Positions 4,806-50,338 of a stretch of DNA of 64,000 nucleotides are shown here, piece after piece. The stretch is from a virus: positions 3,220 through 67,219 of the IMG/VR virus record IMGVR_UViG_3300044699_000032, one strand, 5' to 3'. The notes beneath the pieces were generated by a model. It did not search any database, was not told the DNA's origin, and saw nothing but the letters and a program-made list of their open reading frames with translations. Made by a program: the position numbers and the translations under genes. How positions within the stretch are numbered: position 1 is the stretch's first letter; each line of letters begins with the position of its first letter.

Positions 4806-5378
4806 TTAGCGTCGGTCCTTGGCGGCAAGCAGCATTGCTGCCTGTCGCTGCTCTTCGGTCATGGGCGGGACGTCGGGCTTGGCGCGCGGCGGGGAGCGAT
4901 ACTCGGTCCCGTCGTCTCGAAGTCGGCGCGCTCTTTCGGGGCCTGCGCCCTTGCTTCCCTTACCATTAGGAAGATTCTCTATAGGTAGCTGTAGTGTAGA
5001 TGGAGGCGTTTTGCTTGTGCTAACATGGATGCAAAGTTGCTGCATTTGCTCCGCGTTTGCTGTGCATTTGCTCGGCCGCGGCCTTGCGTTTGTTAGATAT
5101 TTCGGCCGCCCTGGCAAGCTCTATGAGGACGCGTTGACTGGTCCAATATTGAGTCACCTTCAAGGTGTCAAAAAATGGCTCCATTCGTGGCCGCACGCGA
5201 GGCCAATGCCGATTGCTAATCCGCGCCACCCGTTGCAGATCGGCCACAGCAACTTTCCCGTCATGCTCCCAAGCATGCGCGATCAGAAGCACAGTACGCG
5301 CCAACCTCCTGCGCGGTTAGGTGGTGGCAATTGGCCGAAGAAGTCGCCCAAGAACATTGGCATGAACTGATATTTCAT
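4806..5378 (-). CDS. DUF1376 (YdaU-like) replication initiator-type protein, frameshifted
   Basis: ATG at 5378 gives MKYQFMPMFLGDFF, followed by AQEVGAY and LLIAHAWEHDG...LQRVARIS...QRVLIEL...SNKRKAAA, the typical DUF1376 N-terminus. Confidence 0.75.
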
Positions 5379-6370: not shown

Positions 6371-6868
6371 TTAGCCCTTATCGATCGATTGATAAAATGC
6401 GGGTAGGCATTTCACATGCACGGTGACGCCGCCCTCGGGCGCTCCGACATAGGTCGCCTGTTGCGTGTAACCGCCCATCTGGCCGCACACCTTGCACAGT
6501 GCTGATGGGTTTCGCTTTGGCTCTGGCTCAGTAAACAAAACCGGGTTGGCGAACTCTTTGCATTTCCAGATCACTCGTTGCGCACGCGGGTTGTAGGAAT
6601 CCTTGACCGATCGAGTGCCGTCCTTCACCAACAAACCCATTTGCTCTAACTCTGAAACGCGAGTGCGCCACGTAGCGCCGTGAGAGCCGCAGATTTTCTC
6701 AATTTCCCACTCTGTAAGTCCGTGCGGATGGTCACGGTAAATCGCGTAAACTTTACTTTGCTTCTCGGTCAGAGTTTCTGCAATCCGACCAGCCGCTGCC
6801 TTTGATGTCCAAGGATCATCCTTGCGTGACCGCGTGTGAGCACCGAAAAGATCATCATCGTCGTTCAT
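6371..6868 (-). CDS. winged-helix DNA-binding protein
   Basis: ATG at 6868 overlaps the upstream stop. DPWTSKAAA...GLTEWEIEKICG...TWRTRVSELEQMGLLV is wHTH-like. Confidence 0.65.
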   Translation of the reverse strand: MNDDDDLFGAHTRSRKDDPWTSKAAAGRIAETLTEKQSKVYAIYRDHPHGLTEWEIEKICGSHGATWRTRVSELEQMGLLVKDGTRSVKDSYNPRAQRVIWKCKEFANPVLFTEPEPKRNPSALCKVCGQMGGYTQQATYVGAPEGGVTVHVKCLPAFYQSIDKG

Positions 6869-7464
6869 TCTGCTGCCTCCCGAAACTTGTCGACTTCGTT
6901 GCCCCAAGCATCCCATCCCGGTCGGCGCGCGCGCGCGAAAAGCTCGACGTAGGGTCCGGCTACAAGCCGCTCGATCCGGCCGTGCACGCTCGGCTTGCGG
7001 CTGTGCTCGCGGCGCGGCTCGATGATCGCTTGGCGCACATCGGCATTGAGGCGCTTCGGCTTGCCGCGCGTGGCCAGCAAGCACGGTTCGGTGTTGGCGC
7101 GGGTCCAATAACCGAGCCCCATGTACGGCTCGATATCATCCTGAAACATATGGACCTGTGTTGCGTCGGCCTTCGTCCAGCAGAACGCGCAGGTTTTATA
7201 GGTGAAGCCCCAGCCGCCGATGATCATCATCGTTTGCGCTATCGTTGGCCACGTCGACCACATGAACAGCACACAGTCTTTCGCGGCGAGATCGCGGACC
7301 GGCAAAGCCATGATGTCTTGCCAGCGCATTGTCGGGTAATGCTGCGATGCCGAACGGCCCTTGCCGACATCCGACCACGTTTGGAACGACGTCGCCGGAT
7401 CGGCAAGGATCGCGCCGTAGTGCCCCGCCGGCAGGCCGAACGGATCGACCAGCGGGGCCGTCAT
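6865..7464 (-). CDS. MT-A70 family N6-adenine methyltransferase
   Basis: YGAILADP, HYPTM, LPVRDLAAKDCVLFMW, WGFTYKT, GLGYWTRANTEPCLLATRGKP, EHSRKP, YVELFAR, GWDAWGNE. Confidence 0.92.
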   Translation of the reverse strand: MTAPLVDPFGLPAGHYGAILADPATSFQTWSDVGKGRSASQHYPTMRWQDIMALPVRDLAAKDCVLFMWSTWPTIAQTMMIIGGWGFTYKTCAFCWTKADATQVHMFQDDIEPYMGLGYWTRANTEPCLLATRGKPKRLNADVRQAIIEPRREHSRKPSVHGRIERLVAGPYVELFARARRPGWDAWGNEVDKFREAAE

Positions 7465-9559: not shown

Positions 9560-9925
9560 ATGGTTCGAAATCGTCGGGAGGATGATGAGATGATGGGGAG
9601 AAAGCCTGCTACCAAATCCGCGAAGATCAGCCTCGCTGATATCGCCCGATCGCTCAACATGTCGCCCAAGACTGCGCGTCGCAAGATGCGCGCCTACTGG
9701 CATGGACAGCGGCAAGGCGGCTGGACGTTCGACGCATCGAAGCGCAAGGAAATCGTCGCGGTGCTGGAGGGGAAAATGTCATTCACCGTTCTTGAACTGA
9801 TCGCCGTCGAGGCGGCATTGGAGTTTGTGCATAAGGTCGGCAGCTTCGACGAATGGCCGAAATTTCAATGGGACGCCTTGCGACGGGCAGAGGCGAAGAT
9901 CAAGCGGTTCACGGGAGTCGCGTGA
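9560..9925 (+). CDS. small HTH DNA-binding protein, possibly two fused ORFs
   Basis: ISLADIARSLNMSPKTARRKMR HTH-like motif. The true start is probably near 9590. Confidence 0.55.
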   Translation: MVRNRREDDEMMGRKPATKSAKISLADIARSLNMSPKTARRKMRAYWHGQRQGGWTFDASKRKEIVAVLEGKMSFTVLELIAVEAALEFVHKVGSFDEWPKFQWDALRRAEAKIKRFTGVA

Positions 9926-9929
9926 TGAA

Positions 9930-10820
9930 ATGCGGGAAACGCTGATGATCACCGAGCCCGGTTTTTACCCCGACATGCCGATCGAGGAATATCATTCGGA
10001 CCCGTGTCCGAAGCCGTCGCTGAATCAATCGCTGGCGAAGGTGTTGCTCGACAAGTCGCCGTTGCACGCTTGGTATCAGCATCCAAGGCTCAATCCGAAT
10101 TACGAGCGCAATACCGATAAACAGTTTGATCTCGGCACGGCCGCGCACGCGATGCTGATCGGGCGAGGCAAGGAAATCGTACCGATACCGTTTGACAACT
10201 GGCTAACGAAGGCGGCCAAGGAAGCGCGCGAGGAAGCCGCGTTGGCCGGCAAGCAAGCTGTGCTGCAATCGCAGTATGAGCGCGCGGCTGAAATGGTCGC
10301 CACCGCCCTCTTGCAACTCGACGCGCGCGGCCTGTCCGGCTTGTTCAATTCGAAGCTCGGTGCCGGCGAACTCGTCATGGCCTGGGAAGAGTCCGGCGTA
10401 TGGCTTAGGCAGATGGTCGATTGGCTCACTGCCGATGAACTGACGTTCGTCGATTACAAATCGACCAATCTGAACTCTGCCCCGCAAAATCTCGGTCGCA
10501 TCATGCATAGCGCGGGCTGGCCGATCCAAGCTGCAATGGCTCGTCGTGGGCTGGACGTATTGTCACCAGACACCACGGGGCGGCGGCACTATCTGTTTAT
10601 TCTTCAAGAGACAGTGCCGCCGCACGCTTTGCAAGTTTGCGAGATGTCCGAAGCCGTGCAAACGATGGGCAGGAAGATGCTCGCCGTGGCGGTTGAGATT
10701 TGGGAACGGTGCATGGCCGAAAATAACTGGCCTGCTTATCCGTTGCAAATCCAGCGTCCCGAGTTGCCCGCATGGGCAGAAAACGAATGGCTCGCAAGAG
10801 AGATCGAGCGCGAGACATGA
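9930..10820 (+). CDS. RecE/ExoVIII-like PD-(D/E)XK exonuclease (DUF3799-like)
   Basis: PGFYPDMPIEEYHSDP...SLNQSLAK...SPLHAW...FDLGTAAH...VDWL...VDYKST...GWPIQAAM...FILQET. Confidence 0.85.
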   Translation: MRETLMITEPGFYPDMPIEEYHSDPCPKPSLNQSLAKVLLDKSPLHAWYQHPRLNPNYERNTDKQFDLGTAAHAMLIGRGKEIVPIPFDNWLTKAAKEAREEAALAGKQAVLQSQYERAAEMVATALLQLDARGLSGLFNSKLGAGELVMAWEESGVWLRQMVDWLTADELTFVDYKSTNLNSAPQNLGRIMHSAGWPIQAAMARRGLDVLSPDTTGRRHYLFILQETVPPHALQVCEMSEAVQTMGRKMLAVAVEIWERCMAENNWPAYPLQIQRPELPAWAENEWLAREIERET

Positions 10821-10833
10821 TCACACTTTACAT

Positions 10834-11023
10834 CGCGGCGCGTCGCGGCGCTCCGCATCGCGCCGCAGCGCATCGCGCCGCGCCTCTCCGCATCGCCTCG
10901 CGACGCAACGCCTCGCGTCTCACCGCCCCGCGCCGCTACGCTTCGCAACGCCACGCACCTCCCCGCGACGCTCCGCTGCTCGCCGCATCGCACCGCAGCG
11001 CATCGCAACGCATCGCATCGCAA
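10834..11023 (+). repeat. pentamer array 1: 38 x (CGC/CTC + NN), putative guide-like ncRNA
   Basis: Unbroken 5-nt phase. NN string: gg gt gg tc at gc ag at gc gc tc at ct ga aa ct gt ac cc gc ta tt aa ca ac cc ga tc tg gc at ac ag at aa at at aa. Followed by a T-rich linker. Confidence 0.95.
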
Positions 11024-11051
11024 GTTTTCGTTTTTGTCCTTTCTTTTTCAC

Positions 11052-11347
11052 CGCGCCGCGTCGCCGCGCAACGCAAGCCCTCGCGGCGCAACGCCTCGCA
11101 TCGCAGCGCACCGCGACGCTACGCTTCTCTACGCCACGCATCTCGCCACGTCGCTGCGCGACTCTTCGCGTCGCTTCGCAGCGCGACGCTACGCAACGCC
11201 CCGCTACTCGGCTCGACTCCCTGCAACGCTTCGCAGCGCAACGCCCCGCTGCGCCACTCTGCTCGACGCCGCGCATCGCATCGCCGCACCCCGCAACTCG
11301 GCTCGGCGCTTCGCAGCGCCACGCACGGCAGCGCAAACGCAACGCAT
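11052..11347 (+). repeat. pentamer array 2: about 59 x (CGC/CTC + NN)
   Basis: Same phase rule. Ends CGCAA-A-CGCAA-CGCAT, then the linker GTTTCATTTGTTTGTATTTT. Confidence 0.95.
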
Positions 11348-11371
11348 GTTTCATTTGTTTGTATTTTCCGG

Positions 11372-11568
11372 CGCATCGCTCTACGCGACGCAACGCCTCG
11401 CCCCGCCGCGCCTCGCGTCGCGACGCCCCTCTCCACCGCTCGACGCACCGCGTCGCAACGCCACGCTTCGCATCGCACCGCAGCGCAACGCCACGCGCCG
11501 CCGCGCACCGCGGCTCTCCACAGCGCTTCGCAGCGCCCCGCAGCGCTTCTCCACGCAACGCAACGCAA
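11372..11568 (+). repeat. pentamer array 3: about 39 units
   Basis: Ends CGCTT CTCCA (CGCAA)3, then the linker GTTTGGTTTGTCAATTTT. Confidence 0.95.
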
Positions 11569-11591
11569 GTTTGGTTTGTCAATTTTGCCCG

Positions 11592-11786
11592 CGCCTCGCA
11601 CCGCGTCTCCCCGCCTCGCTGCGCCCCGCACCGCAACGCAACGCAACGCTCCTCACCGCATCGCAGCGCCACGCCACGCCCCGCGTCTCTCCGCAGCGCC
11701 GCGCAGCTCTGCGCTTCGCAACGCCTCTCTGCGCAGCTCAACTCAGCGCCCCGCATCGCAACGCAACTCGATTCAACCCAACGCAA
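11592..11786 (+). repeat. pentamer array 4: 39 units, abutting the RBS of the RAMP-like gene
   Basis: Contains an internal (CGCAA)3 run. Ends CGCAA immediately before CAGGAG and the ATG at 11800. Confidence 0.95.
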
Positions 11787-11799
11787 CAGGAGAACTAAA

Positions 11800-12387
11800 A
11801 TGCGACAGGTTAAGGTCTTTATCGAAAACATCCCCGGCAGTCCCTATTCGCAATCGGCACAGCACGACGCGCCCATGCTCGATCGCGAAAGTCACGACGA
11901 TTACGACCGCCGGACATGGCGCAAGAAATGCACGGTCGGCCGCGACGGCGTCGTTGCGATCCCGGCCATGGGGCTCAAGCAATGCCTCGACACAGCCGCG
12001 TTCAAACTCGGTTTGAAAGTACCGAACCGACGCGGCGCAACGTACAAATCATTCTTTGCCAGCGGCGTGATCTGCGATAGCGATGTGCCCATCAGCAATG
12101 GGAAGCCGCTCAAGCCGGATGACGCCGAGATGGTCACGATCAGCGCAAGCAGCACGGGCGAACGCGGCGGCGGCAAACGTGTCCCGCGTCGTTTTCCGGT
12201 GTTTGATAAATGGCACGGTGTTGCGAGTTTTACGATTTTGGACGATCTAATTACCGAAGCGATTTTCGAGCACCACTGCAAAACTGCCGGTATGGTCGTT
12301 GGTATTGGTCGCTTCAGACCGGAAAAAGGCGGCACTAACGGCAGATTTAAGGTTTCGAAATTCGAGTGGGCCGATGTAAAAATTTAA
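11800..12387 (+). CDS. stand-alone RAMP/Cas7-like protein (195 aa)
   Basis: AGGAG RBS. N-terminal strand VKVFIENIPGSP; VAIPAMGLKQCL (compare Cas7/Csm3 IPGSSLKG..R); RRFPVFDKWHGVASFTIL; C-terminal Gly-rich loop AGMVVGIGRFRPEKGGTNGRFKV typical of RAMPs. Recognised by eye only. Confidence 0.75.
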   Translation: MRQVKVFIENIPGSPYSQSAQHDAPMLDRESHDDYDRRTWRKKCTVGRDGVVAIPAMGLKQCLDTAAFKLGLKVPNRRGATYKSFFASGVICDSDVPISNGKPLKPDDAEMVTISASSTGERGGGKRVPRRFPVFDKWHGVASFTILDDLITEAIFEHHCKTAGMVVGIGRFRPEKGGTNGRFKVSKFEWADVKI

Positions 12388-12393
12388 CAACGC

Positions 12394-12553
12394 CGCGCCG
12401 CATCGCTTCGCAGCGCAGCGCAACGCCGCGCAACTCGCCGCTTCGCAACGCAACGCAACGCCTCACGGCACCGCTCAACGCGGCTCTCCGCACCGCTCCG
12501 CAGCGCCCCGCAGCGCCGCGCCTCGCATCTCGTCTCCGCGCCACGCATCGCAA
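12394..12553 (+). repeat. pentamer array 5: about 32 units between the two cassette genes
   Basis: Starts a few nt after the RAMP-like stop. Internal (CGCAA)3 run; ends CGCAT CGCAA. Confidence 0.95.
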
Positions 12554-12580
12554 GCCCACTTGATTTTGAAGGAATGTCAA

Positions 12581-13093
12581 ATGGCAAAAACAATGTTTGA
12601 ACGATCCAAAGAAACCGAGCAGCTTATCAATTATCTGCGCTTGAACGACAAGGGCGCACTCGTAACGTACACCGATCTGTCGACGTTGATTGGCGACAAG
12701 GTCGACGCGCGCTATGCAAAACTGATCTCCGCTCGAAAACTTTTGCAGCGCGACCATAATCAGGTTTGGGTTTGCGTACAGCCGCGCGTCGGAGTGCAAC
12801 GACTGACCGACCTCGAAATAGCGGAACGCTTGCCTAAGTTTTGGTTGATGGGCGCGCGTAGCAAGTTGAAGCGCGGCGGCACCCAAGCCGAAGTCGTAGA
12901 GTTACGCCAGCTTGACGCCGATCAACAGACGCGGTTTGGCGTTGATTGCATTCAACGTGAGTTGGCTTTCGACGCCTTGTCGCGCGCGACGCGACGCAAG
13001 ATGGAAAGGGTAGCGCGCGGCACATCCAACGATTTGCCCGCGTTTACGGCGATTGAATGGGCGATCTCTTTAAGCCCGAAGAATCTGAAATGA
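12581..13093 (+). CDS. uncharacterised partner protein (170 aa), possible N-terminal winged helix
   Basis: AAGGA RBS before the ATG at 12581. LINYLRL..KGALVTYTDLSTLIG...ARKLLQRDHNQVWVCVQPRVGVQRL is wHTH-like; the C-terminus is helical. Confidence 0.75.
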   Translation: MAKTMFERSKETEQLINYLRLNDKGALVTYTDLSTLIGDKVDARYAKLISARKLLQRDHNQVWVCVQPRVGVQRLTDLEIAERLPKFWLMGARSKLKRGGTQAEVVELRQLDADQQTRFGVDCIQRELAFDALSRATRRKMERVARGTSNDLPAFTAIEWAISLSPKNLK

Positions 13094-13097
13094 ACAA

Positions 13098-13367
13098 CGC
13101 CGCGCTCCGCGACGCAACGCGACGCCTCGCAACGCGACGCATCGCAGCGCATCACGCCGCCACGCCACGCATCTCACCGCCTCGCGCCGCAGCGCTACTC
13201 GTCGCAGCGCCACTCTCCGCGCCGCATCGCGTCGCGTCGTCCCGCGTCTCGCCGCTTCGCATCGCGTCTCTGCGCCTCGCAGCGCCCCGCCACGCCCCGC
13301 AACGCATCTCCGCGCCCCGCACCGCGGCGCAACGCCCCGCCGCTCTCCGCAGCGCGACGCAACGCAA
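13098..13367 (+). repeat. pentamer array 6: 54 units
   Basis: Unbroken phase. Ends (CGCAA)2, then the linker CGTTTTGGTTTGGCAATTT. Confidence 0.95.
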
Positions 13368-13386
13368 CGTTTTGGTTTGGCAATTT

Positions 13387-13542
13387 CGCGACGCGCCGCA
13401 TCGCCGCTCGCCGCTTCGCCTCGCGTCGCCACGCCTCTCGGCGCTTCGCAGTGCGCCGCCACGCTACGCCACGCCGCGCTGCGCACCTCAACCGCATCGC
13501 TGCGCTCCTCGCCGCTTCTCCACGCCCCGCAACGCAACGCAA
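13387..13542 (+). repeat. pentamer array 7: about 31 units
   Basis: Ends CGCTT CTCCA CGCCC (CGCAA)3, then the linker GTTTTGTTTGGCGATTT. Confidence 0.95.
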
Positions 13543-13564
13543 GTTTTGTTTGGCGATTTCCCAC

Positions 13565-13679
13565 CGCGCCGCATCGCCTCTCATCGCCACGCCGCGCGTC
13601 GCTACGCCCCTCTTCGCGACGCTTCGCGCCGCCACTCTTCGCTGCGCCCCGCTTCTCCACGCCCCGCAACGCAACGCAA
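13565..13679 (+). repeat. pentamer array 8: 23 units
   Basis: The last 30 nt (13650-13679) are identical to the last 30 nt of array 7 (13513-13542). Followed by the RBS of the ATPase gene. Confidence 0.95.
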
Positions 13680-13695
13680 CGTTCTGAGGAATGAT

Positions 13696-14724
13696 ATGAC
13701 CGCACCTGTACGCAAGTTCGAAGACAAGCCGGCGGTTCGTGAGCAAGTTCCAATCTTGGTCGGCTGATGGGGCCGAGTGGAATCGGGCAAGACCTATTCG
13801 GCCCTGCGGCTCGCGACCGGCATTCAGCAAGTGGTCGGCGGGGACATCTATGTCGTCGACAGCGAAGCAAGACGAAGCCTGCACTACGCCGATGATTTCA
13901 AATTCCAACACATCCAGTTTGATCCGCCGTTCGGCTCGCTCGATTATCTCGCGGCCATTCGTCATTGCGTGGCAAAGGGCGCGAAGGTTGTGATCATCGA
14001 CTCGATGTCGCATGAGCACACCGGCCCTGGCGGCTATCTGCAAACGCAAGACGCCGAAGTAGAGCGCATGGCTGGCAACGATATGGCCAAGCGTGAGCGC
14101 GTGAAAATGGCCGCTTGGATCAAGCCGGCGTACCTGCGCGGGCAGATGATCAGCGGCATCCTGCAACTCAATGTCGATTTGATTTTCTGTTTCCGGGCGA
14201 AAGAAAAGATCAAGCCCAAGCCCGGCGGCAATCCGATTGAACTCGGATGGATGCCAATCGCTGGCGACGAACTGCTGTTTGAGATGACAACGAATTGCCT
14301 GTTGTTGCCGAAGGCGGGCGGCGTGCCGACGTGGAGATCGGACCAGATCGGCGAAAAATTAATGATGAAGCTGCCGAAGCAGTTCGAGGCGGTGTTTGAG
14401 AAAAGCAAGCCGCTGGATGAAGAGATTGGCCGCAAGCTTGCCGAGTGGGCGAAGGGCGGTGTGGCTAGGACTGCGCCGGTATCGCCACCGGAGGAAGATT
14501 TTGACCAAGCCGAGATGGACGTCGGTGATGAAGTGGATTCCGATCTGGTCGCGGCGCACATGGAGCGGTGCGCTGCAGCGGCGGCGCGGGGATGGGAGGC
14601 GTTGCGGATTGAATGGGAGAGCACGCCGGACCCGATCGCGGACATCTTGCGGGGGCCGCATTTGCCGCGATGGAAAGCGATAGCAAAGGCGGCGAAGCCT
14701 GCCGGGGAACAGGAGTCCGTGTGA
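13696..14724 (+). CDS. Sak4-like (AAA_24) recombination ATPase, frameshifted near Walker A
   Basis: MTAPVRKFEDKPAVREQVPILVG + LMGPSG.GKTYSALRLATG, YVVDSE, VVIIDSMSHE (Walker B), IFCFRAKEK. Confidence 0.8.
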
Positions 14725-14890: not shown

Positions 14891-14965
14891 GCTTGGGAGG
14901 CGAAGAAGTTGCGCTACGAATTACATATTGGGCGTTGGTCGCGCCCCTAAACCCTGGAGCTTCAA

Positions 14966-15341
14966 ATGAAACATTCCAAGTTGCCCGACACAATCCCGAC
15001 CGTGCTGCATTACGACGGAGCCAACGGCGGCAATCATACCGGCACTGATGGCGTAAGAGACGTGTTCATGTTGGATGCCAAGCATCTGGTTGCAGGTTTC
15101 GATGGGCTTACGAATTGGGAACCCAGGCGAAGACATCATCGCCATCAGCAATTATGACGGCAAACTCAAAGACCTCTTCCTTACACAGCCATACGAAGCA
15201 GCAGCGTTGAGGATCACCGGCGATAGCCTCGACGTGCTAATCTTCGACACGACCGTGAAGGAAGTGAAATCGATGATCGTCTTCGGCGATCCGTTGCCTT
15301 CATATGAGTTGAGACGGGAGCGTCAGCGTAGCCACGGGTAG
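14966..15341 (+). CDS. hypothetical protein resembling an RTX/T1SS-substrate C-terminal segment, frameshifted
   Basis: Joining 14966..15157 and 15075..15341 gives TGTDGVRDVFML...GFDGLTNWEPGEDIIAISN, similar to G.D.F.F...G.D.I.DF..GED.I.L. Confidence 0.35.
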
Positions 15342-15748
15342 CCGTCGAGTAGCCGAGCAAGCCCGACACCCACACCACGACTGCTATTAGATAAGCAAGG
15401 CGACGACGGCTTGTCCGGCCTTGTAGACCAGTGGATCAATCCCGATCCCGAGCCATTTCAGCACCCACAGAATGCACGCGGCGATCAGGATGATGACCGC
15501 AATGTGCAGCAGCAGGTAAAGGAAACTGACGAGCAGGTTCATGATCACTCTCCTACAGTATCAGCCACACGATCCCTACGACCATGAGAGGCCATCCGAC
15601 TAGCCAGAAACACAACGCTGCGAGTGCACCGTTTTCCATCTTATGGTTCGACCTCCCACAGCCCCGCGCCGTAGCCGACGAGCGCAATGACGATCAGGCC
15701 AAGGATGATCGCGCCGGCGATCCAGACAGTGAGCGGGACTCGGTTCAT
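15330..15748 (-). CDS. three very small membrane-protein ORFs at the end of the lysis cassette (about 15330..15542, 15553..15639, 15641..15748)
   Basis: Hand translations MNLLVSFLYLLLHIAVIILIAACILWVLKWLG..., MENGALAALCFWLVGWPLMVVGIVWLIL* and MNRVPLTVWIAGAIILGLIVIALVGYGAGLWEVEP*. Tightly packed, with RBS-like purine runs before two of them. Confidence 0.55.
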
Positions 15749-33783: not shown

Positions 33784-34412
33784 ACCACGACATGCGACTT
33801 GTAGGGGGCGAGCAGTGTTTTCACTTCCGGCGGCATCCCGCCACCCTGCCCCACGCCACCCACCCAATAATCGTAGGTTGATACGCCGGGGATGGCGACG
33901 CCCTTGATCATCGGATCGCGCGTCTTGGCGAAGTAGCTTTGTTTCATGAGCAAGAGGCAGGCTTGTTCAAGATCGTGCGGCAAGGTCTGCAGCAGTTCAT
34001 AGCCAGCGCTGTACGTGACGATGATCCTGCCGCCGGTCCAAGCGGAGCGATAAGCGCCACGCACTCGATACAGGAGCCCGTTGCTGCTTTGAAACTCATA
34101 CTGATCGGCCGGCAAGACTTGATTGGATTCCGTTATCGACACCACTTCGCTGATCGGATAGCGCGACAGGATCAGCGCGTCGTCGCATGATTGCCAGCCA
34201 AGATTGAAATGGTCGGCGACGGTTTCTAGTTGAAACACCCGACCGCATGCCGACGCGATCGCGACCGACGTTTGCGTGATCTTGGTTTGCAGCCATGCGT
34301 CTTGCTCAGTGTCGGTGATCCCCAATTCCAGCTTAACGGTTGCGAGCGTCGTCAGATCGAGCGATGCGCCCGGCATGACGATGACGGTTTTGAACGGCGA
34401 TGCTGACATCAT
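33780..34412 (-). CDS. head-tail connector (gp6-like)
   Basis: DLTTLATVKLELGI...ACGRVF...LSRYPI...VTYSAGY...LPHDLEQAC...LLAPY. Confidence 0.85.
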   Translation of the reverse strand: MMSASPFKTVIVMPGASLDLTTLATVKLELGITDTEQDAWLQTKITQTSVAIASACGRVFQLETVADHFNLGWQSCDDALILSRYPISEVVSITESNQVLPADQYEFQSSNGLLYRVRGAYRSAWTGGRIIVTYSAGYELLQTLPHDLEQACLLLMKQSYFAKTRDPMIKGVAIPGVSTYDYWVGGVGQGGGMPPEVKTLLAPYKSHVVV

Positions 34413-37162
34413 GACCTCGGTTCAGATGGCGTTCCTGGCGGCCTCGGCGTTGCAACATTAGCGGCTGATCTCGGATCAGATGGTGTTCCCGGTGAGCGAG
34501 GTGTTGCAACGTTAGCGGCGCTTCTGTTCGATGCCTCATCGTACCACTCACGCCGGGGAACATTTCCTATTACACCCCCTCGGATATGCGGAACAAAGAA
34601 CACATCGGCATCAGCATAATGATTGGCAAACAAATGCTGATCATCCAAGTTCCCAATAATGGGAATCTTAAATATGTCAGCATCAACGAACGTATTCGGT
34701 AGCAGCACCAGCGACACAACAGGAGTGAAGAATGCGTCGCTGTCCACATAGCGCGTCGGCAACAGCGGATTGACCAACACCACGATCGGCGCAAAGAATG
34801 CATCAGCATCGGAATACTTTGTTGGCTCCACACTGATGGTGATAGTGGGAGCAAAAAACGTATCGGTATCGACGAATAGATTAGGTTGAACAGTTGCCGT
34901 GCCACCCTGTGCGGTGGGCGTGAAAAACGCATCTGCATCGGTATATAAGCTTGGCTGCAGCGCACGGACCGACAGCACAACGTGTGTGAAGTATGTGTCC
35001 GTGTCTGCATAGAGCGCCGATGCAAGGTTGACCGCACCGGGTGCGACCACATGATTAAAAAAGGCGTCAGCATCAGTAACCAGTGCCGGTGCTAGATTTT
35101 TGATCCCCGCAGCATCTAGCACCTGCGTAAAGAAGGCATCCGCATCGGTGTGCGGCGTCGGCTGCAGATTTTGATCTGCTGCCAGGAACAGAGCGGCAAA
35201 ATCAATAAGGCCGGTATCAACAAACTCTTCATCAACAACCAGTTCCAGAATCGGATGCGCGGCAGTCGGTTCGGGTACAATCGCAATAACTGTGTGCGTG
35301 AAGATTAGATCTATATCGGCAAATAATATTGGCCGCAGATCGAGGATTACGTCATCAGCGGTCGTGGAAATAAAGCTTCCAAGTTCTGAGGCAAAAATAA
35401 CGGGGTCATAAATTGAAAAAACTTGTTCAACCAACGCAGGCAGCACTACATCGCTCGGCACTACATGCGTCAGGAACGCATCGGTATCAACATGCAATGC
35501 CGGCGCTAAATTAACTGCGCCGACCCCTACGGTGGGCGAATAGAACGACTCTGCGTCTGTAAATAGTGCTGGTGCAAGATCGACACTGCCAAACGACACC
35601 GTATGAGTGAAAAATGCGTCATCTGCTGCGTGGAGCGTCGGCGCAAGATTGACCGCGCTGACCCCCGCGGTAGGCGAATAGAACGACTCTGCATCGGTAA
35701 ATAATGGTGGCGCAAGGTCGACACTGCCGACCCCCACGGTGTGCATGAAAAATGCGTCATCCGCTGCATAAAGCGATGGTGCAAGATTGACTGCGCCGAC
35801 CGCTAAGGCGTGCGTGAAGTAGGAGTCCGCATCATCAACCAGTGTTGGCGCAAGATTGAGCGCGCCAACATTCGCAACGTGCGTGAAGAATGAATCAGTA
35901 TCTTCAAATAGCGCTGGTGCTAGAGCGACACCGCCGGGCGCTATGACGTGTGTGAAGTACGTTTCGCCATCGATAAAAACACTGTCTTGTGTCAACGATT
36001 GCGAAGGAACATCCGCCGGACGTGTGAAGCTCCCTAACTCTTCTGCAAAAATTACCGGATCATAAATTGAGAAGACTTGATCAATGTAATCCGCGACTGC
36101 CGCGGCTGCCAGTGTATGCGTGAAGAACGCATCGCTGTCAGTGTAAGAAGTAGTTGGGCTTAAATTCTGTGTGCCTCCTGTATACGTGATGACGATAAGG
36201 CCGGATGCGCCCGCGCCCGCCGTCTTGGTGCCTGCTGCAACGCGAGTGCCGCCAGCACCGCCACCGCCACCGCCATAGTTGCCGCCAGCCGCCACCGCTG
36301 GTGACGGGCGTGCCGCCAGTGTTAGAGTTGGCCCCGCCGCCACCGCCACCACCACCCGGTCCACCGGTCGCGCTGTCGGAAGGTCTGGGTATAGACCGCA
36401 TTGACACCGCCAGCACCGCCGGACGTGGTCGCGCCGCTAACAGCGGAGAAGAAACCGCCGCCGCCGCCCTTGCCGCCAGAGACACCCGCGCCGCCCGCTG
36501 GCGTGCCCGATGTGCCGCCCGCGCCACCTGTGCCACCGCCTGCCGTTCCATTAGCTGTGCTGGCGTTGCTTGCACTGCCGCCATTGTCACTGGCACCGCC
36601 ACCGCCGCCACCGAACAATGTTGTTGTACAAGCGCCGCCGGTACCGCCAACACCGGTTGGACCACCGGCACCGCCGCCGCCACCGCCCGAGCCGGTGACA
36701 GCAGCGACCGCGCCACCCGTTCCACCATTCTGTCCGAGCGACGCGGTGTAGGTCGGTACCGTTGGCGTGCCGACCGTGGTCGTAGTCGCGACGCCACCCA
36801 CGCCGCCTGCAGTGTCTGTGCCGCCAGCGCCGCCGCCTTCGCCCGACTCCACATAGCGGCAGTTCGCGAACGAAGCTGAACCCCAGCAAGTAGCGACGCC
36901 GGTCGTTTTGACCGTCGTGCTCGGGTTGTCGATCGACACCAAGAACGCCGTGGTGGACGCCAACGCACCCGACGTTTGCGTAAGCAACACATGCGCGCCA
37001 CCGCCACCGCCCGGACCAGAACGGTACGTGGTAACACCTTGTGTTGCCAGTACCACCGCGTCCGCCGCAGCCAATGAGCCGAACGGTATGGCCCGCATCA
37101 GTCCAGCCGGCCGGACGGCTGTAGGGGGACGTACTGCCGTTGACCAGGAAGACGGTAGGCAA
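34409..37162 (-). CDS. large Gly-rich plus tandem-repeat virion-associated protein, frameshifted
   Basis: TTG start after GGAG (MPTVFLVNG...LIGCGGRGG). Gly-rich domain ending GASGLIVITY, then many roughly 23-25-aa repeats of L.P.L..D.D.FFTH.V. Confidence 0.7.
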
Positions 37163-47399: not shown

Positions 47400-48040
47400 T
47401 CAGTTTTCTGCCCATCGCATTGCCTCCTGCACTGTCATCTTGGGATACGCCTTCAACAAACTGACCGTCGAGCAGTTGATCACGGTGACGCCGAGGCTGC
47501 GCAGAACGGTTGCTGCGCCATCGATCGCGGCGCGCCAGCGCGGCAGATTGTCATTCGGGTGCGGGTTCGACAGCGGCGGATAGTGCCGCGGATGCCAGTG
47601 CTCACCGAGATCGACGCGCATGTCGAAACCGATCAGCAGGAGTCTTGCAGCGCCGAACTGCACCGCGAGATTGATCCCCTGGAAACCGCCGTTGCCGCCC
47701 GAGCCGATCGTGCCCGGTGTATCAACCAGCAAGTCATTGCTACGTGACATCACCGTGACTTTGCGGATGTCCTTGAACTGGTCGCACGCCTCGCGATCCT
47801 GCGAAATTTTCAAGCCGCCGAACGCTTCCACCCCTTGCCGCATGCGCCACCATGCGGCGTCGCAGCCATAGAGCACGTCGGCCCACTTACACAACTGCCA
47901 GCTTTCATTGATTGCAATGATGCGCGCCTTGGCGCGCAGTAGGTCGATCGGGGCAGCCTTGGCGCTCGGGCCGGAAGCGATGATGGCGCAGGCTTGTCCG
48001 CGCCAGTCGGGAAACCAGTCAGGTTTTGCCGTGCTGCCAA
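47400..48040 (-). CDS. Maf/DUF115 (MptE-like) glycosyltransferase-fold protein, copy 2
   Basis: DWRGQACAIIASGPSA...IIAINESW...ADVLYGCD..WW...NGGFQGINLAVQFGA.RLLLIGFDM...VINCS. Start approximate. Confidence 0.75.
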
Positions 48041-48918
48041 TGCGGAATTCCGGGCTCGCCTTGGGGGCCGCGCTCGCCATTCTTGCCGTCCTTGCCGTCC
48101 CGTCCATCCCGACCTCGCCGCGATGCCAAATCCCAATCATCGCCCTCACGCGGCGTGCTTTGTGGCTTGTCCTTGCGCGCGATCCAAGTCGATCCGCCAT
48201 AGGTGACTTGATCGCCTAGCAAATACTCTTTTCCACTCTTGAAGCTGCCGCGGTGCAGCACGATAGGGAATGTCAGGGGCGACCATTTGGTGATCTCGCC
48301 CTGCTTGAAACCGAAGTTGAAACTGCGATCATCGATCCGTTCGATGGTGAAGTCGTCGAGCGAGAACCCGTCACGGCCGTCCTTGCCAGGAGCGCCGTCC
48401 TTGCCGTCCTTGCCGTCCGCACCGTCCTTGCCGAGCACCGGCCCGAGTGTATGGACCGCCCCGTCCGTCAGTGTCACGACCAGTTGACCCTCGCGATTGA
48501 TGACCGCGCCAGCGAGGCCAATGCCGTCCGCACCCCGCTCGCCTTGCGCCCCGTTAAAGCCGTCCTTGCCGGCCAACCCCGGCTCGCCGCGCTCACCCTG
48601 CGGCCCCGCTTCGCCCCGCTCGCCGACGCCTCCCGGCTGACCCGGCTCGCCCTGCGGCCCCGCCGCGCCGTCCGCGCCCCGCTCCCCGGCTGGCCCCGCC
48701 TCACCGGCCGGTCCCTGTGGCCCCGGCTCGCCCGATAGGCCGCGCTCGCCCGGCGGCCCTTGCAAGGGCTCGGCCGCCTTGAGCGCGGCAATCTCTGCCC
48801 TTAGCTCGGTGATGACTTGCTGCATCGGTTCGATCGCCTTGGCGACACATTCGGCGATGTGATCCCGCACGACGGGCGCGAACCCTGCCGCGACCGCGCT
48901 GATAGCGGCGTGGTTCAA
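48019..48918 (-). CDS. collagen-like (G-X-Y) head-associated protein
   Basis: Long GPPGERG/GPQG runs and C-terminal FPIVLHRGSF...Y..GDQVTYGGSTWIA...DWDLASRRGRDG. The TTG start overlaps the portal stop. Confidence 0.85.
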   Translation of the reverse strand: MNHAAISAVAAGFAPVVRDHIAECVAKAIEPMQQVITELRAEIAALKAAEPLQGPPGERGLSGEPGPQGPAGEAGPAGERGADGAAGPQGEPGQPGGVGERGEAGPQGERGEPGLAGKDGFNGAQGERGADGIGLAGAVINREGQLVVTLTDGAVHTLGPVLGKDGADGKDGKDGAPGKDGRDGFSLDDFTIERIDDRSFNFGFKQGEITKWSPLTFPIVLHRGSFKSGKEYLLGDQVTYGGSTWIARKDKPQSTPREGDDWDLASRRGRDGRDGKDGKNGERGPQGEPGIPHWQHGKT

Positions 48919-50338
48919 TCCGTTGCTGCTTGTAGAAATTTGCGTAACTCCCAATTTGCCAGCACCGTGATCGCTGCCAAATCAGCCTCATCGACCTCGA
49001 TATCTTTGGTCGGGGCGGGCGGCGGCGGGGGCGGCGCTGGTGGGGCGGGGGGCTTCGCTGGTGCGAACGGATCGGCTTGCGCATCGCGCTTGGCTAAGGC
49101 TTCAAGGGAATAGTTTTGCTGCTGACTCAACGGCGCTTCGCCACCCTTGACCGGCCCGAGATTCAAGCGCGCGCGGGCTTCGTTTGGAGATTTGATGGCG
49201 GCCTTGGTCGCGGCAGCTTCCGTCTCGACTAACGTCTTGGTGTCCATCCGCAGCAAATCGTCGAGATCAAACCATGTGCCGTAAGAGTGGCCCTCGACGT
49301 CGACGAGCCCCAAGCCTTCGTCGAGCAAAAGCTCGATGCTTTCAAAATGCTTCTGCAGCGTTTGGCTGTAATATTGCTGATTCAACGACTCGATGTTGTT
49401 GTAGCTCGGGGATCGCCAACCTGCACCATGTGCGGCGGCACGCCGAACGACGAGCAAACCATCTTGGCTGACACACCAAGCTGTTCGATCAATTGCGCGT
49501 CAACAAAATCCATTGTCATCGTTTCGAATTTCAATCCGCTACCGACAACAGCAACCTTGCCGGATTTTGCGCCGCTGAATTCCGACTCGAAGTGAGCTTT
49601 GATCCGTTGTTCGTCTTCTTTGCTGATGTCACCGGGCGCGCTCATCATGCCGCTCGGCCGCGCGCTGTTCTGAAAGAATTGCGTCGATGTGCGCTGAATG
49701 TTGATGCCATGCACCGCCGCCAGCGCGGCCGGTGCCATCGGTGATAGACCATGCAACGGATGGAATTTCAGCGTCATCATGTCGTGGATGATCTCTGACG
49801 CGGGCACGGTGACCTTTTCGACCGTCGTGCCGCTCAGGTTGTCCTTGGACAATTCGTAATAGACGGCACCATCGGGCGCGACCAGCAACCGCACACGCGT
49901 CGGATCGAGCACGTACATGCCAACTACAACACCGCGACCATCGCGCTCTTTCAGAATGTAGGTGTTGCCAGACATCAGTTTCGAGAACATCCATGCCTCG
50001 AAAAACTGAATGCGCGTCTGATAATGATTAGGCTTGCGGATCACCGGGCTAAATGCTGGCGCGGCGACTTCCGTCCATATTCCCTTGCCATCTTGCTCGA
50101 CCAATCGCAGGCGGCATTTTGCAACATCGGAAGCAATGCGATCGACGCACGCATAGACAGCATGAAAGCTCAGAATGTTTTCCGGGCGGGCTTCGATGTT
50201 GCGTTGCCACGCTCCGGTGTATGGCTCATGGACAACAGGGAACCACCAATTGCCGCGATCCACCGGCGTTGTTGGCGTGAACGTGTAATCCTTGCGCCCG
50301 AAGAATCGCCCGAGCGCAGGCAGATTAAAACGCATCAC
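48915..50338 (-). CDS. HK97-family portal protein, one frameshift near 49410
   Basis: AVYACVDRIASDVAK...KPNHYQT...SGNTYI...EIIH...GLSPM...FFQNSARPSG...DAQLIEQ...FGVPP...SPNEAR. Confidence 0.95.

Follow-up and report, generated by a model that had tools for sequence, protein, structure and literature searches.

The stretch of DNA analysed here (the window, 64 kb) corresponds to bases 3220-67219 of one 67,219-bp contig, the virus record IMGVR_UViG_3300044699_000032 of IMG/VR. Between positions 10824 and 13679 the window carries a gene for a stand-alone RAMP protein, a second small gene, and arrays of five-nucleotide units in which a constant triplet, mostly CGC, is followed by two variable bases (NN). 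This locus is very probably a phage VIPR (Viral Interference Programmable Repeat) system of a non-canonical class with CGC/NN guide RNAs (vrRNAs). VIPR systems have been described as a stand-alone ancestral RAMP protein (Vipr) with an accessory gene (vap), carried mostly by phages and proviruses; their vrRNAs consist of 9-16 YNNGG repeats (GGY/NN) followed by an invariable tail (10.64898/2026.04.26.720920). According to the same source, they read double-stranded DNA with one base skipped between the NN pairs, often at the codon wobble position, and their targets are satellites, prophages and other VIPR systems. A preliminary description of the window, made from its letters, had likened the locus to VIPR systems with a GGY/NN code, and such a code is indeed described in that paper. 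Of the features that characterise these systems, four were found here together, namely homology to Vipr, arrays of 3+2 pentamers, a minimal locus without cas genes or CRISPR array, and mostly viral carriage.

The Vipr protein and the pentamer arrays

The vipr gene (11800-12387, + strand) encodes a RAMP protein of 195 aa with a G-loop, GIGRFRPEKGGTNGRF, at residues 168-183. Pfam gave no match to this protein, and PHROG only a weak one, to family 4652, whose function is unknown. Its AlphaFold2 (AF2) model, built on a 59-sequence alignment, reached a predicted local distance difference test score (pLDDT) of 95.7. When this model was compared with the PDB by Foldseek, the best matches were all Cas7-type RAMPs (type VII Cas7, Csm3 and Cmr; E 3.6e-7, probability 1.00, TM 0.55), the identity to the Cas7 structures being 11-17%. 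Furthermore, the family profile matched PDB entry 36pp, 'SUSP1 Vipr protein' (E 2.1e-10), and hhalign aligned the family with the SUSP1 Vipr coding sequence (NC_028808 28474-29061, traced by protein accession in an October 2026 paper) end to end over 167 columns, with 97.8% probability and E 1.2e-12. SUSP1 Vipr is likewise 195 aa long, and the two proteins share only 19% identity; tblastn of the window protein against GenBank phages found no match. Taken together, the model and the profile alignments indicate that the 11800-12387 product has a RAMP/Cas7 fold and is homologous over its full length to SUSP1 Vipr, a protein that has been characterised by experiment. The RAMP-like call made in the preliminary description is borne out by these four analyses, including the Cas7/Csm3 comparison that it had proposed. 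The family is also large: 433 close homologues were found (identity 64-84% and length nearly always 195 aa among the 120 listed), and the wider family comprises 959 representative clusters (50% identity) at E <= 0.001.

The arrays were delimited by a phase-locked search for a C[G/T/A]C triplet every 5 nt on the + strand of all 64 kb. This search returned nine in-phase runs, all in this locus and none elsewhere in the window, which become eight arrays when 13387-13542 is counted as one array with a 1-nt slip. A period-5 detector that is agnostic to motif and strand flagged a single stretch in the window, 10816-13696. The nine runs (10-57 units each) sum to 311 pentamers over 10824-13679, so that the number of arrays given earlier stands and the count of about 315 units is corrected. 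The triplet is CGC in 249 units (80%), CTC in 48 (15%), CAC in 8 (3%) and another in 6. Over the 311 units, the three triplet columns have entropies of 0.13, 0.83 and 0.03 bits and the two NN columns 1.94 and 1.99 bits, in agreement with the near-constant triplet and high-entropy dinucleotide that had been described. Phase is held without a break over 285 nt and 270 nt in the two longest runs, the first being longer than the 270 nt previously noted. The two genes that had been recognised amid the arrays, 11800-12387 and 12581-13093, do lie between them.

All eight arrays are on the + strand. Array 1 (10824-11023) has 40 units, the first two degenerate and regular CGC units from 10834, and is followed by a T-rich spacer (11024-11051). 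Array 2 (11052-11336) is the longest, with 57 units; after it come a 1-nt slip, two further CGCAA-like units and a T-rich spacer to 11378. Array 3 (11379-11568; 38 units) closes with three CGCAA units before the T-rich spacer 11569-11591. Array 4 (11592-11771; 36 units) has three CGCAA units in its interior (units 9-11), which are possibly a guide boundary, and its 3' end runs into the ribosome-binding site of vipr. Array 5 (12394-12553; 32 units) lies between vipr and the accessory gene and also contains three internal CGCAA units (units 11-13). Downstream of the accessory gene, array 6 (13098-13367; 54 units) is followed by the T-rich spacer 13368-13386, and array 7 (13387-13542) is made of 21 + 10 units (13387-13491 and 13493-13542) and followed by the T-rich spacer 13543-13564. 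Array 8 (13565-13679; 23 units) has its final six units in common with array 7 and extends into the ribosome-binding site of the gene that follows. Thus, a T-rich spacer is found 3' of five of the eight arrays. Arrays 2, 5, 7 and 8 (starts 11052, 12394, 13392 and 13565) open with the same or nearly the same two units, CGCGC then CGCAT/CGCGT. These opening units may be a constant 5' leader, in which case the target-search seed taken from array 5 (see below) held non-pairing units.

Within the arrays there are two 1-nt phase slips, at 11337 and 13492. Frame changes are also seen outside the arrays: reading through the Walker-A region at the start of the AAA_24-like gene (13697-13800) takes two changes of frame in about 30 nt, and the portal gene (48019-50338) is split over two frames. 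The contig therefore probably carries indel errors, as had been remarked before, which is plausible on these grounds, and the array slips may be assembly errors since at least two genes elsewhere are split between frames.

Related loci and the gapped matching of their guides

In IMG/VR, 310 contigs encode a relative of this Vipr, and 80 of them were fetched with 10-kb flanks; the comparison set comprised 83 sources, i.e. 82 related loci and this phage. Among 185,579 species genomes (one genome per species) only two relatives were found, in contigs of metagenome-assembled genomes (MAGs) titled Acetobacteraceae and Xanthobacteraceae, and the family was present in 2 of 401 sampled alphaproteobacterial genomes. 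The clade is thus large and almost entirely phage-borne. The pairing of protein and arrays is conserved in it. At least one chain of at least eight C[GTA]C-NN units was found in 80 of the 83 sources (79 of the 82 related loci), and 386 of the 391 chains share the strand of vipr. Period-5 arrays occupy 30,708 of 341,090 bases within 2.5 kb of the vipr G-loop codons, compared with 364 of 711,798 bases farther away. Chain length in this set has a median of 15 units, a 5th-95th percentile range of 9-44 and a maximum of 79, so the arrays of the window are long but not unique. This phage shares no guide with any relative, the longest NN run in common being 5 units, in one case; hence the expectation that homologues would be flanked by period-5 arrays with different NN strings was confirmed. 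The final three units carry AA in 55%, 56% and 43% of 333 unique chains, compared with 8.8% in chain interiors, which means that the arrays end in a constant run of two to three CGCAA units. Arrays opposite to the vipr strand were observed at L033:11461-11604, L010:9135-9203 and L090:2786-2930; they read GCG-NN in locus orientation and may be orphan or inverted arrays.

The NN strings of the 391 chains were then searched against the 83 sources on both strands, with arrays masked, at steps of 2, 3, 4 and 5 nt between dinucleotides, using seeds of six exact units that were subsequently extended. Step 3 corresponds to one skipped base. This step gave 1318 seed hits against 1013 +/- 51 in 20 shuffles, and the other steps gave 858-861, which is shuffle level. 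Diagonals scoring at least 14 numbered 138 at step 3 against 72 +/- 7.6 in 20 shuffles, with 43-50 at the other steps (again shuffle level) and 76 for guides in reversed order. After deduplication (64 sources, 287 unique guides), step 3 still gave 836 diagonals against 673 +/- 40 (maximum 747 of 30 shuffles) and 93 diagonals scoring at least 14 against 55.6 +/- 9 (maximum 75), the other steps remaining at shuffle level. In 288,510 further bases from the ten closest relatives, 315 diagonals were found at step 3 against 227 +/- 24; steps 4 and 5 were at shuffle level, and step 2 gave 177 against 151 +/- 13. The step-3 z-scores are generous, yet the direction of the result is consistent.

The best single matches exceed what chance would give in a search space of this size. 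Over its first 13 units, an L039 array of 16 units agrees with L055 in 25 of 26 bases, and a 16-unit array of L056 agrees with L055 in 22 of 24 bases over its first 12 units; both sites fall within a helicase-like open reading frame (ORF) adjoining the vipr gene of L055. In a 26-unit array of L024, the initial 12 units match L054, 10 of them perfectly. Moreover, L012 has a 68-unit array whose first 12 units match the accessory gene at its conserved 3' end, both in L030 (22/24 bases) and in L027, and the footprint predicted for this rival guide inside the accessory gene of the window is 13043-13077 on the - strand (20/24 NN bases). At the sites whose frame was checked, namely both L055 sites and the window site, the base that is skipped falls on the wobble position of the codon. 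The terminal AA units have no match to the target, and the matches end after about 12 units even in long arrays, which was read as about 12-unit guide modules concatenated in long arrays. These matches suggest that relatives aim at each other's VIPR loci, including the accessory gene of this phage, which is possibly new. The earlier proposal that the NN strings specify a non-contiguous target is supported in the relatives, by the step-3 excess over shuffles and over other skips; for the guides of the window itself, no target was found in the small sequence space searched.

Concerning these guides, the search of the own genome and of L001-L008 gave a best score of 12 (6 units), equal at all skip lengths; the lack of self-targeting agrees with published systems. 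In the 82 loci, three matches of 7 units were seen, which does not exceed the number at other skips, and none of them extends further. A codon-level scan, made in degenerate form over 390 homologues of Vipr and of the accessory protein, gave one 7-unit match, equal to shuffles, and no window guide scored at least 16 in the 288,510 bases of the ten closest relatives. Four exact seeds were also used in gapped-seed scans of IMG/VR and metagenomes. The 8-unit seed had 56 IMG/VR matches, none of which extends, the two 9-unit seeds had no matches, and the 10-unit seed had 11 metagenome matches, all to one identical gut sequence with 42% GC, taken as chance. This negative result is weak, since the seeds covered about 26 of the 311 units and required exact matches, and the sequence space searched was small.

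Proposed mechanism and alternative explanations

By homology to SUSP1, the + strand arrays would be transcribed together with the early recombination operon, and Vipr protomers would polymerise along the RNA, one per pentamer. Each protomer would sequester the constant C-G-C and expose NN, and the exposed dinucleotides would pair with double-stranded DNA as NN-x-NN-x, with one unpaired base between pairs. This pairing could silence genes of competing phages, and the winged-helix accessory protein (12581-13093) may assist at the DNA. From the matches of the relatives, the guides would be modules of about 12 units, several of them contained in each long array, and each array would close with two to three constant CGCAA units, which take no part in target pairing.

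Several observations weigh against this interpretation. The constant triplet is CGC, and not the GGY that the solved structures explain, and the window arrays have 10-57 units compared with the published 9-16. At step 3, codon periodicity raises even the baseline of the shuffles, and the match statistics rest on related, partly redundant loci. Matches to double-stranded DNA are also blind to the transcribed strand. None of the approximately 25 guide modules of the window had a target in the searches described above. No sigma-70-like site was found before the arrays, and the only one in the region lies inside the accessory gene, compared with 0.5 expected. No stable fold was predicted at the array-spacer junctions (z +0.5 to +1.5), unlike the SUSP1 pseudoknot tail. 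Finally, hhalign detected no similarity between the accessory protein and SUSP1 vap1 (probability 0.4%).

Regarding the strand, guides could also be transcribed from the - strand of a VIPR-type system and read NN-GCG. Matches to double-stranded targets are symmetric and do not distinguish the strands, no promoter is mapped, and 5 of the 391 chains in the relatives run opposite to vipr, all of which would suit this alternative. Nevertheless, it is very unlikely, and the + strand is favoured as the transcribed array strand because the other 386 chains are co-oriented with vipr and because the triplet-then-NN order is that of SUSP1, for which RNA sequencing and cryo-EM established GGY-NN on the vipr strand (10.64898/2026.04.26.720920). 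In addition, the + strand triplet keeps the G of GGY at position 2 and the pyrimidine at position 3, and the constant triplet-AA units stand at the same 3' end as in the GGC-type systems of L162 and L050. L162 (G002:C90:3047-6250), from a MAG contig, is a canonical VIPR of GGC/NN type whose eight short arrays lie at 1788-2688; most of them end in GGCAA- or GGCGA/GGCAG-type units, and several are then followed by a T-rich spacer resembling that of the window. The second, GGC-type system of L050 likewise ends in triplet-AA units. The lack of a promoter-like site before the arrays suggests read-through from the early operon followed by processing. Rfam models, including those of hammerhead ribozymes, gave no hit above threshold.

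It is very unlikely that the locus is largely inert or a decoy, its long arrays being drifting remnants or sponges for the Vipr of rivals. Such a role would fit the failure to find a target for any window guide, the length of the arrays, far beyond that of published vrRNAs, and the 15% of triplets that are CTC; furthermore, solo vrRNAs with which satellites redirect the VIPR of a rival have been documented (10.64898/2026.10.15.759431). Against it, neither vipr nor the accessory gene is disrupted, the family is well conserved (the 64-84% identity among the 120 listed homologues), phase is held over 285 nt with the terminal CGCAA units kept, and the arrays of relatives are equally long, up to 79 units. 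The sequence space searched for targets was also small.

The accessory gene (vap-like; 12581-13093, + strand) encodes 170 aa, with a winged-helix-like N-terminal domain and a helical C-terminal part. The protein has no Pfam or PHROG match and appears in a protein atlas in unnamed, mostly viral clusters only. Its AF2 model has a pLDDT of 70.4 overall and above 90 at residues 11-50; it is good in the N-terminal part only, where the order of helices and strands is that of a winged helix. Foldseek matches were weak (E >= 0.026) and all to winged-helix regulators of the MarR, PurR and CodY families, and a PDB profile search gave at most E 0.26, to a helix-turn-helix repressor. The product is therefore a probable winged-helix protein as judged from the model. 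It has 158 homologues, three of which, among the 120 listed, are named 'Atl1 alkylated DNA nucleotide flippase' in their source, and one lies within a Bradyrhizobium septentrionale chromosome. An accessory homologue is present in 28 of the 82 related loci, those with the most similar Vipr, and in all 28 it is directly downstream of vipr on the same strand. In more distant relatives (L055), a SNF2-helicase-like ORF follows vipr instead (L055:4291-5799), and a CGC/NN array (5186-5263) lies inside the open frame between the two halves of this ORF.

The window has 58% GC and encodes a large terminase, a portal, a head protein/protease, a 2000-aa tape-measure protein and an endolysin, and therefore belongs to a tailed phage. 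The locus sits in its + strand early region, a recombination/replication module, between an exonuclease VIII/PDDEXK-like gene upstream of the arrays (9825-10820) and an AAA_24-like gene downstream of them (13777-14724). Elsewhere in the window, a type II DNA methyltransferase at 6868-7464 (- strand; PADLOC PDLC03262, E 1.4e-54) is the sole defence-type match in 91 ORFs, and a 138-bp tandem repeat (35501-35805; 2.2 copies, 79% matches) lies within a 651-aa ORF at 34409-36364 (- strand) that has no PHROG match.

With a winged-helix-like neighbour, a replication module around them and no promoter-like site upstream, the arrays could be imagined to act as DNA, as phased protein sites (iteron-, centromere- or origin-like) for the winged-helix protein or host factors, with the RAMP protein employed otherwise. 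This is highly improbable. The common orientation of 386 of the 391 chains with vipr is not needed for a symmetric DNA site, and the NN bases are near-random and not shared between relatives, which leaves no fixed binding site beyond CGC. Moreover, the protein next to the arrays is homologous over its full length to a Vipr that binds an RNA with the same 3+2 repeat, NN strings match genes of relatives by the one-base-skip rule, and arrays also accompany Vipr in those of the 82 loci, 54 in number, that lack this winged-helix gene.

An ordinary microsatellite, or a low-complexity coding repeat within ORFs that read through the arrays in several frames (e.g. 10546-12387), has next to no probability and is contradicted by the composition and the comparative data, as the preliminary description had argued for the microsatellite: the period of 5 is not a multiple of 3 and thus not a coding period, NN entropy is 1.94-1.99 bits, the long ORFs are artefacts that stay open because CGC-NN seldom gives a stop codon, and the same layout recurs with different NN strings in 79 of the 82 related loci.

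Triplet classes and relation to known systems

For a VIPR system with CGC/NN guides, the change of triplet could be related to the residues that contact it. In SUSP1 Vipr, G1 is read by His17 and the G-loop Asp177, the thumb Arg138 and the G-loop cradle G2, and the Y3 pocket includes Arg179 (10.64898/2026.04.26.720927). In the profile and multiple alignments, the SUSP1 G-loop G-V-G-D177-W-R179-P corresponds to G-I-G-R171-F-R173-P of the window protein, and Arg138 aligns with Phe132. Across the related loci, Arg at the Asp177 position goes with CGC (65 loci), the exceptions being L078, with a CGA call, and L058 and L059, with a 14-unit CTC call; an array call is absent in eight loci of this comparison. 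Gln at this position was found with CAC in 4 of 4 loci (L008, L073, L074 and L081). All four systems with Asp (SUSP1, L162, L163 and the second system of L050, at 14925-15524) have GGY. Since the number of independent lineages is small, shared ancestry alone could explain the pattern. The 150 best family representatives carry Arg in 80 cases, Gln in 15, Val in 8, Ser in 8, Thr in 4, another residue in 11 and Asp in none, and in 24 the search pattern detected no G-loop. Three IMG/VR scans found no loci with the Val, Ser or Thr forms, and hence the link between residue and triplet rests on three residue classes only.

L050 carries two systems 4 kb apart, one of CGC type (L050:10001-10531, G-loop GVGRFRP) and a canonical GGC/NN system (L050:14613-15807) that has its own 199-aa Vipr (14925-15524, G-loop GLGDYRP) with arrays on both sides. 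This arrangement would make sense if neither system loaded the RNAs of the other.

It is tentatively proposed that one G-loop residue together with the thumb sets the accepted triplet (Asp-GGY, Arg-CGC, Gln-CAC), that VIPR systems would form orthogonal 'handle' classes able to coexist in one phage without cross-loading, and that the CGC class would use long tail-less concatemers of about 12-unit guides; this proposal is on the doubtful side. If a simple residue switch did explain the triplet, it would provide a natural set of orthogonal guide scaffolds and would allow the reading of the handle by Vipr to be tested directly.

VIPR, discovered only months ago, is an RNA-guided recognition of DNA by a gapped code and has been proposed as a forerunner of CRISPR. 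The locus of the window belongs to a large phage clade, that of the 310 IMG/VR contigs, whose guides have a different constant triplet. The matches of relatives' guides to each other's VIPR loci would extend the phage-versus-phage use from enterobacterial and Pseudomonas phages to soil-type alphaproteobacterial phages, a host range supported by the family assignments of the two MAG records with relatives.

In class 1 effectors, Cas7 backbone subunits polymerise on the guide RNA with a fixed step. The window protein resembles the class 1 Cas7 subunits (type III Csm3/Cmr4 and type VII Cas7) in its RRM-based RAMP fold, glycine-rich loop and thumb. Unlike them, it is accompanied by no other cas genes, CRISPR array, large subunit or nuclease partner: PADLOC gave no match to cas families among the 91 ORFs of the window and a tandem-repeat scan found no CRISPR-like array in it, as had been noted from the letters. 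Class 1 CRISPR-Cas is defined by Cas7 with other cas genes and a repeat-spacer array, and this combination was not found here. The VIPR step is also different, with 5 nt and three bases sequestered, compared with 6 nt and one base flipped.

Among the closest known systems is the type II VIPR of Escherichia phage SUSP1 and of a Pseudomonas fulva prophage (10.64898/2026.04.26.720920, 10.64898/2026.04.26.720927). There, as in the window, the locus consists of two genes, one for a stand-alone RAMP protein of 195 aa, with homology along the whole length, and directly after it a small accessory gene; pentamers of three constant and two hypervariable bases lie on the vipr strand at both sides of the genes. 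The window locus and this system are both phage-borne and lack cas genes, and the relatives of the window locus show the same one-base-skip matches, wobble skip and targets in VIPR loci of rivals. In contrast, the triplet of the window is CGC/CTC/CAC and not GGY, its G-loop has Arg for SUSP1 Asp177 and its thumb Phe132 for SUSP1 Arg138. Its longer arrays have no predicted structured tail, with constant CGCAA units and a T-rich spacer instead, and its accessory protein is unrelated in sequence to vap1.

The canonical GGY motif (YNNGG repeat) is absent from the window arrays. However, seven VIPR types are distinguished, some with 'a related consensus', and alternative NNNGG, YNNNG and NNNNG repeats are described (10.64898/2026.04.26.720920); since the papers allow such a related consensus and non-canonical triplets, GGY does not define the VIPR family as a whole. 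In the frame of the YNNNG class the window unit is C-N-N-C-G, a formal fit; unlike that class, its third N is 98% C in the window, a second fixed base rather than a free one.

Closer in this respect are the 21 clusters of VIPR-like arrays with non-canonical triplets (e.g. GAC/NN, CAC/NN, WGT/NN and TGH/NN) reported in October 2026 from a survey with a genomic language model (10.64898/2026.10.21.760802). They share with the window a fixed non-GGY triplet, two variable bases and a Vipr-like fold adjoining the arrays, and their CAC/NN is also used by the relatives L008, L073, L074 and L081. Their motifs repeat about 10 times, compared with up to 57 units in the window arrays. The CGC clade may or may not be among these 21 clusters, the full list of which is given in figure S10A of that paper. 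As a word, 'CGC' was not found in the main text of 10.64898/2026.04.26.720927 or 10.64898/2026.10.21.760802, or in the supplement PDF of 10.64898/2026.04.26.720920, a search of text that leaves the motif-listing figures and tables outside it.

Since VIPR and non-canonical triplets, including CAC/NN, are already in print, the locus is a variant of a known system and not a new category. What may be new with respect to the described systems is the CGC class itself, unless it is within the figure-listed motifs, together with the link of the G-loop residue to the triplet, the multi-guide arrays, which reach 57 units in the window and 79 among relatives, and vrRNAs that would have no structured tail.

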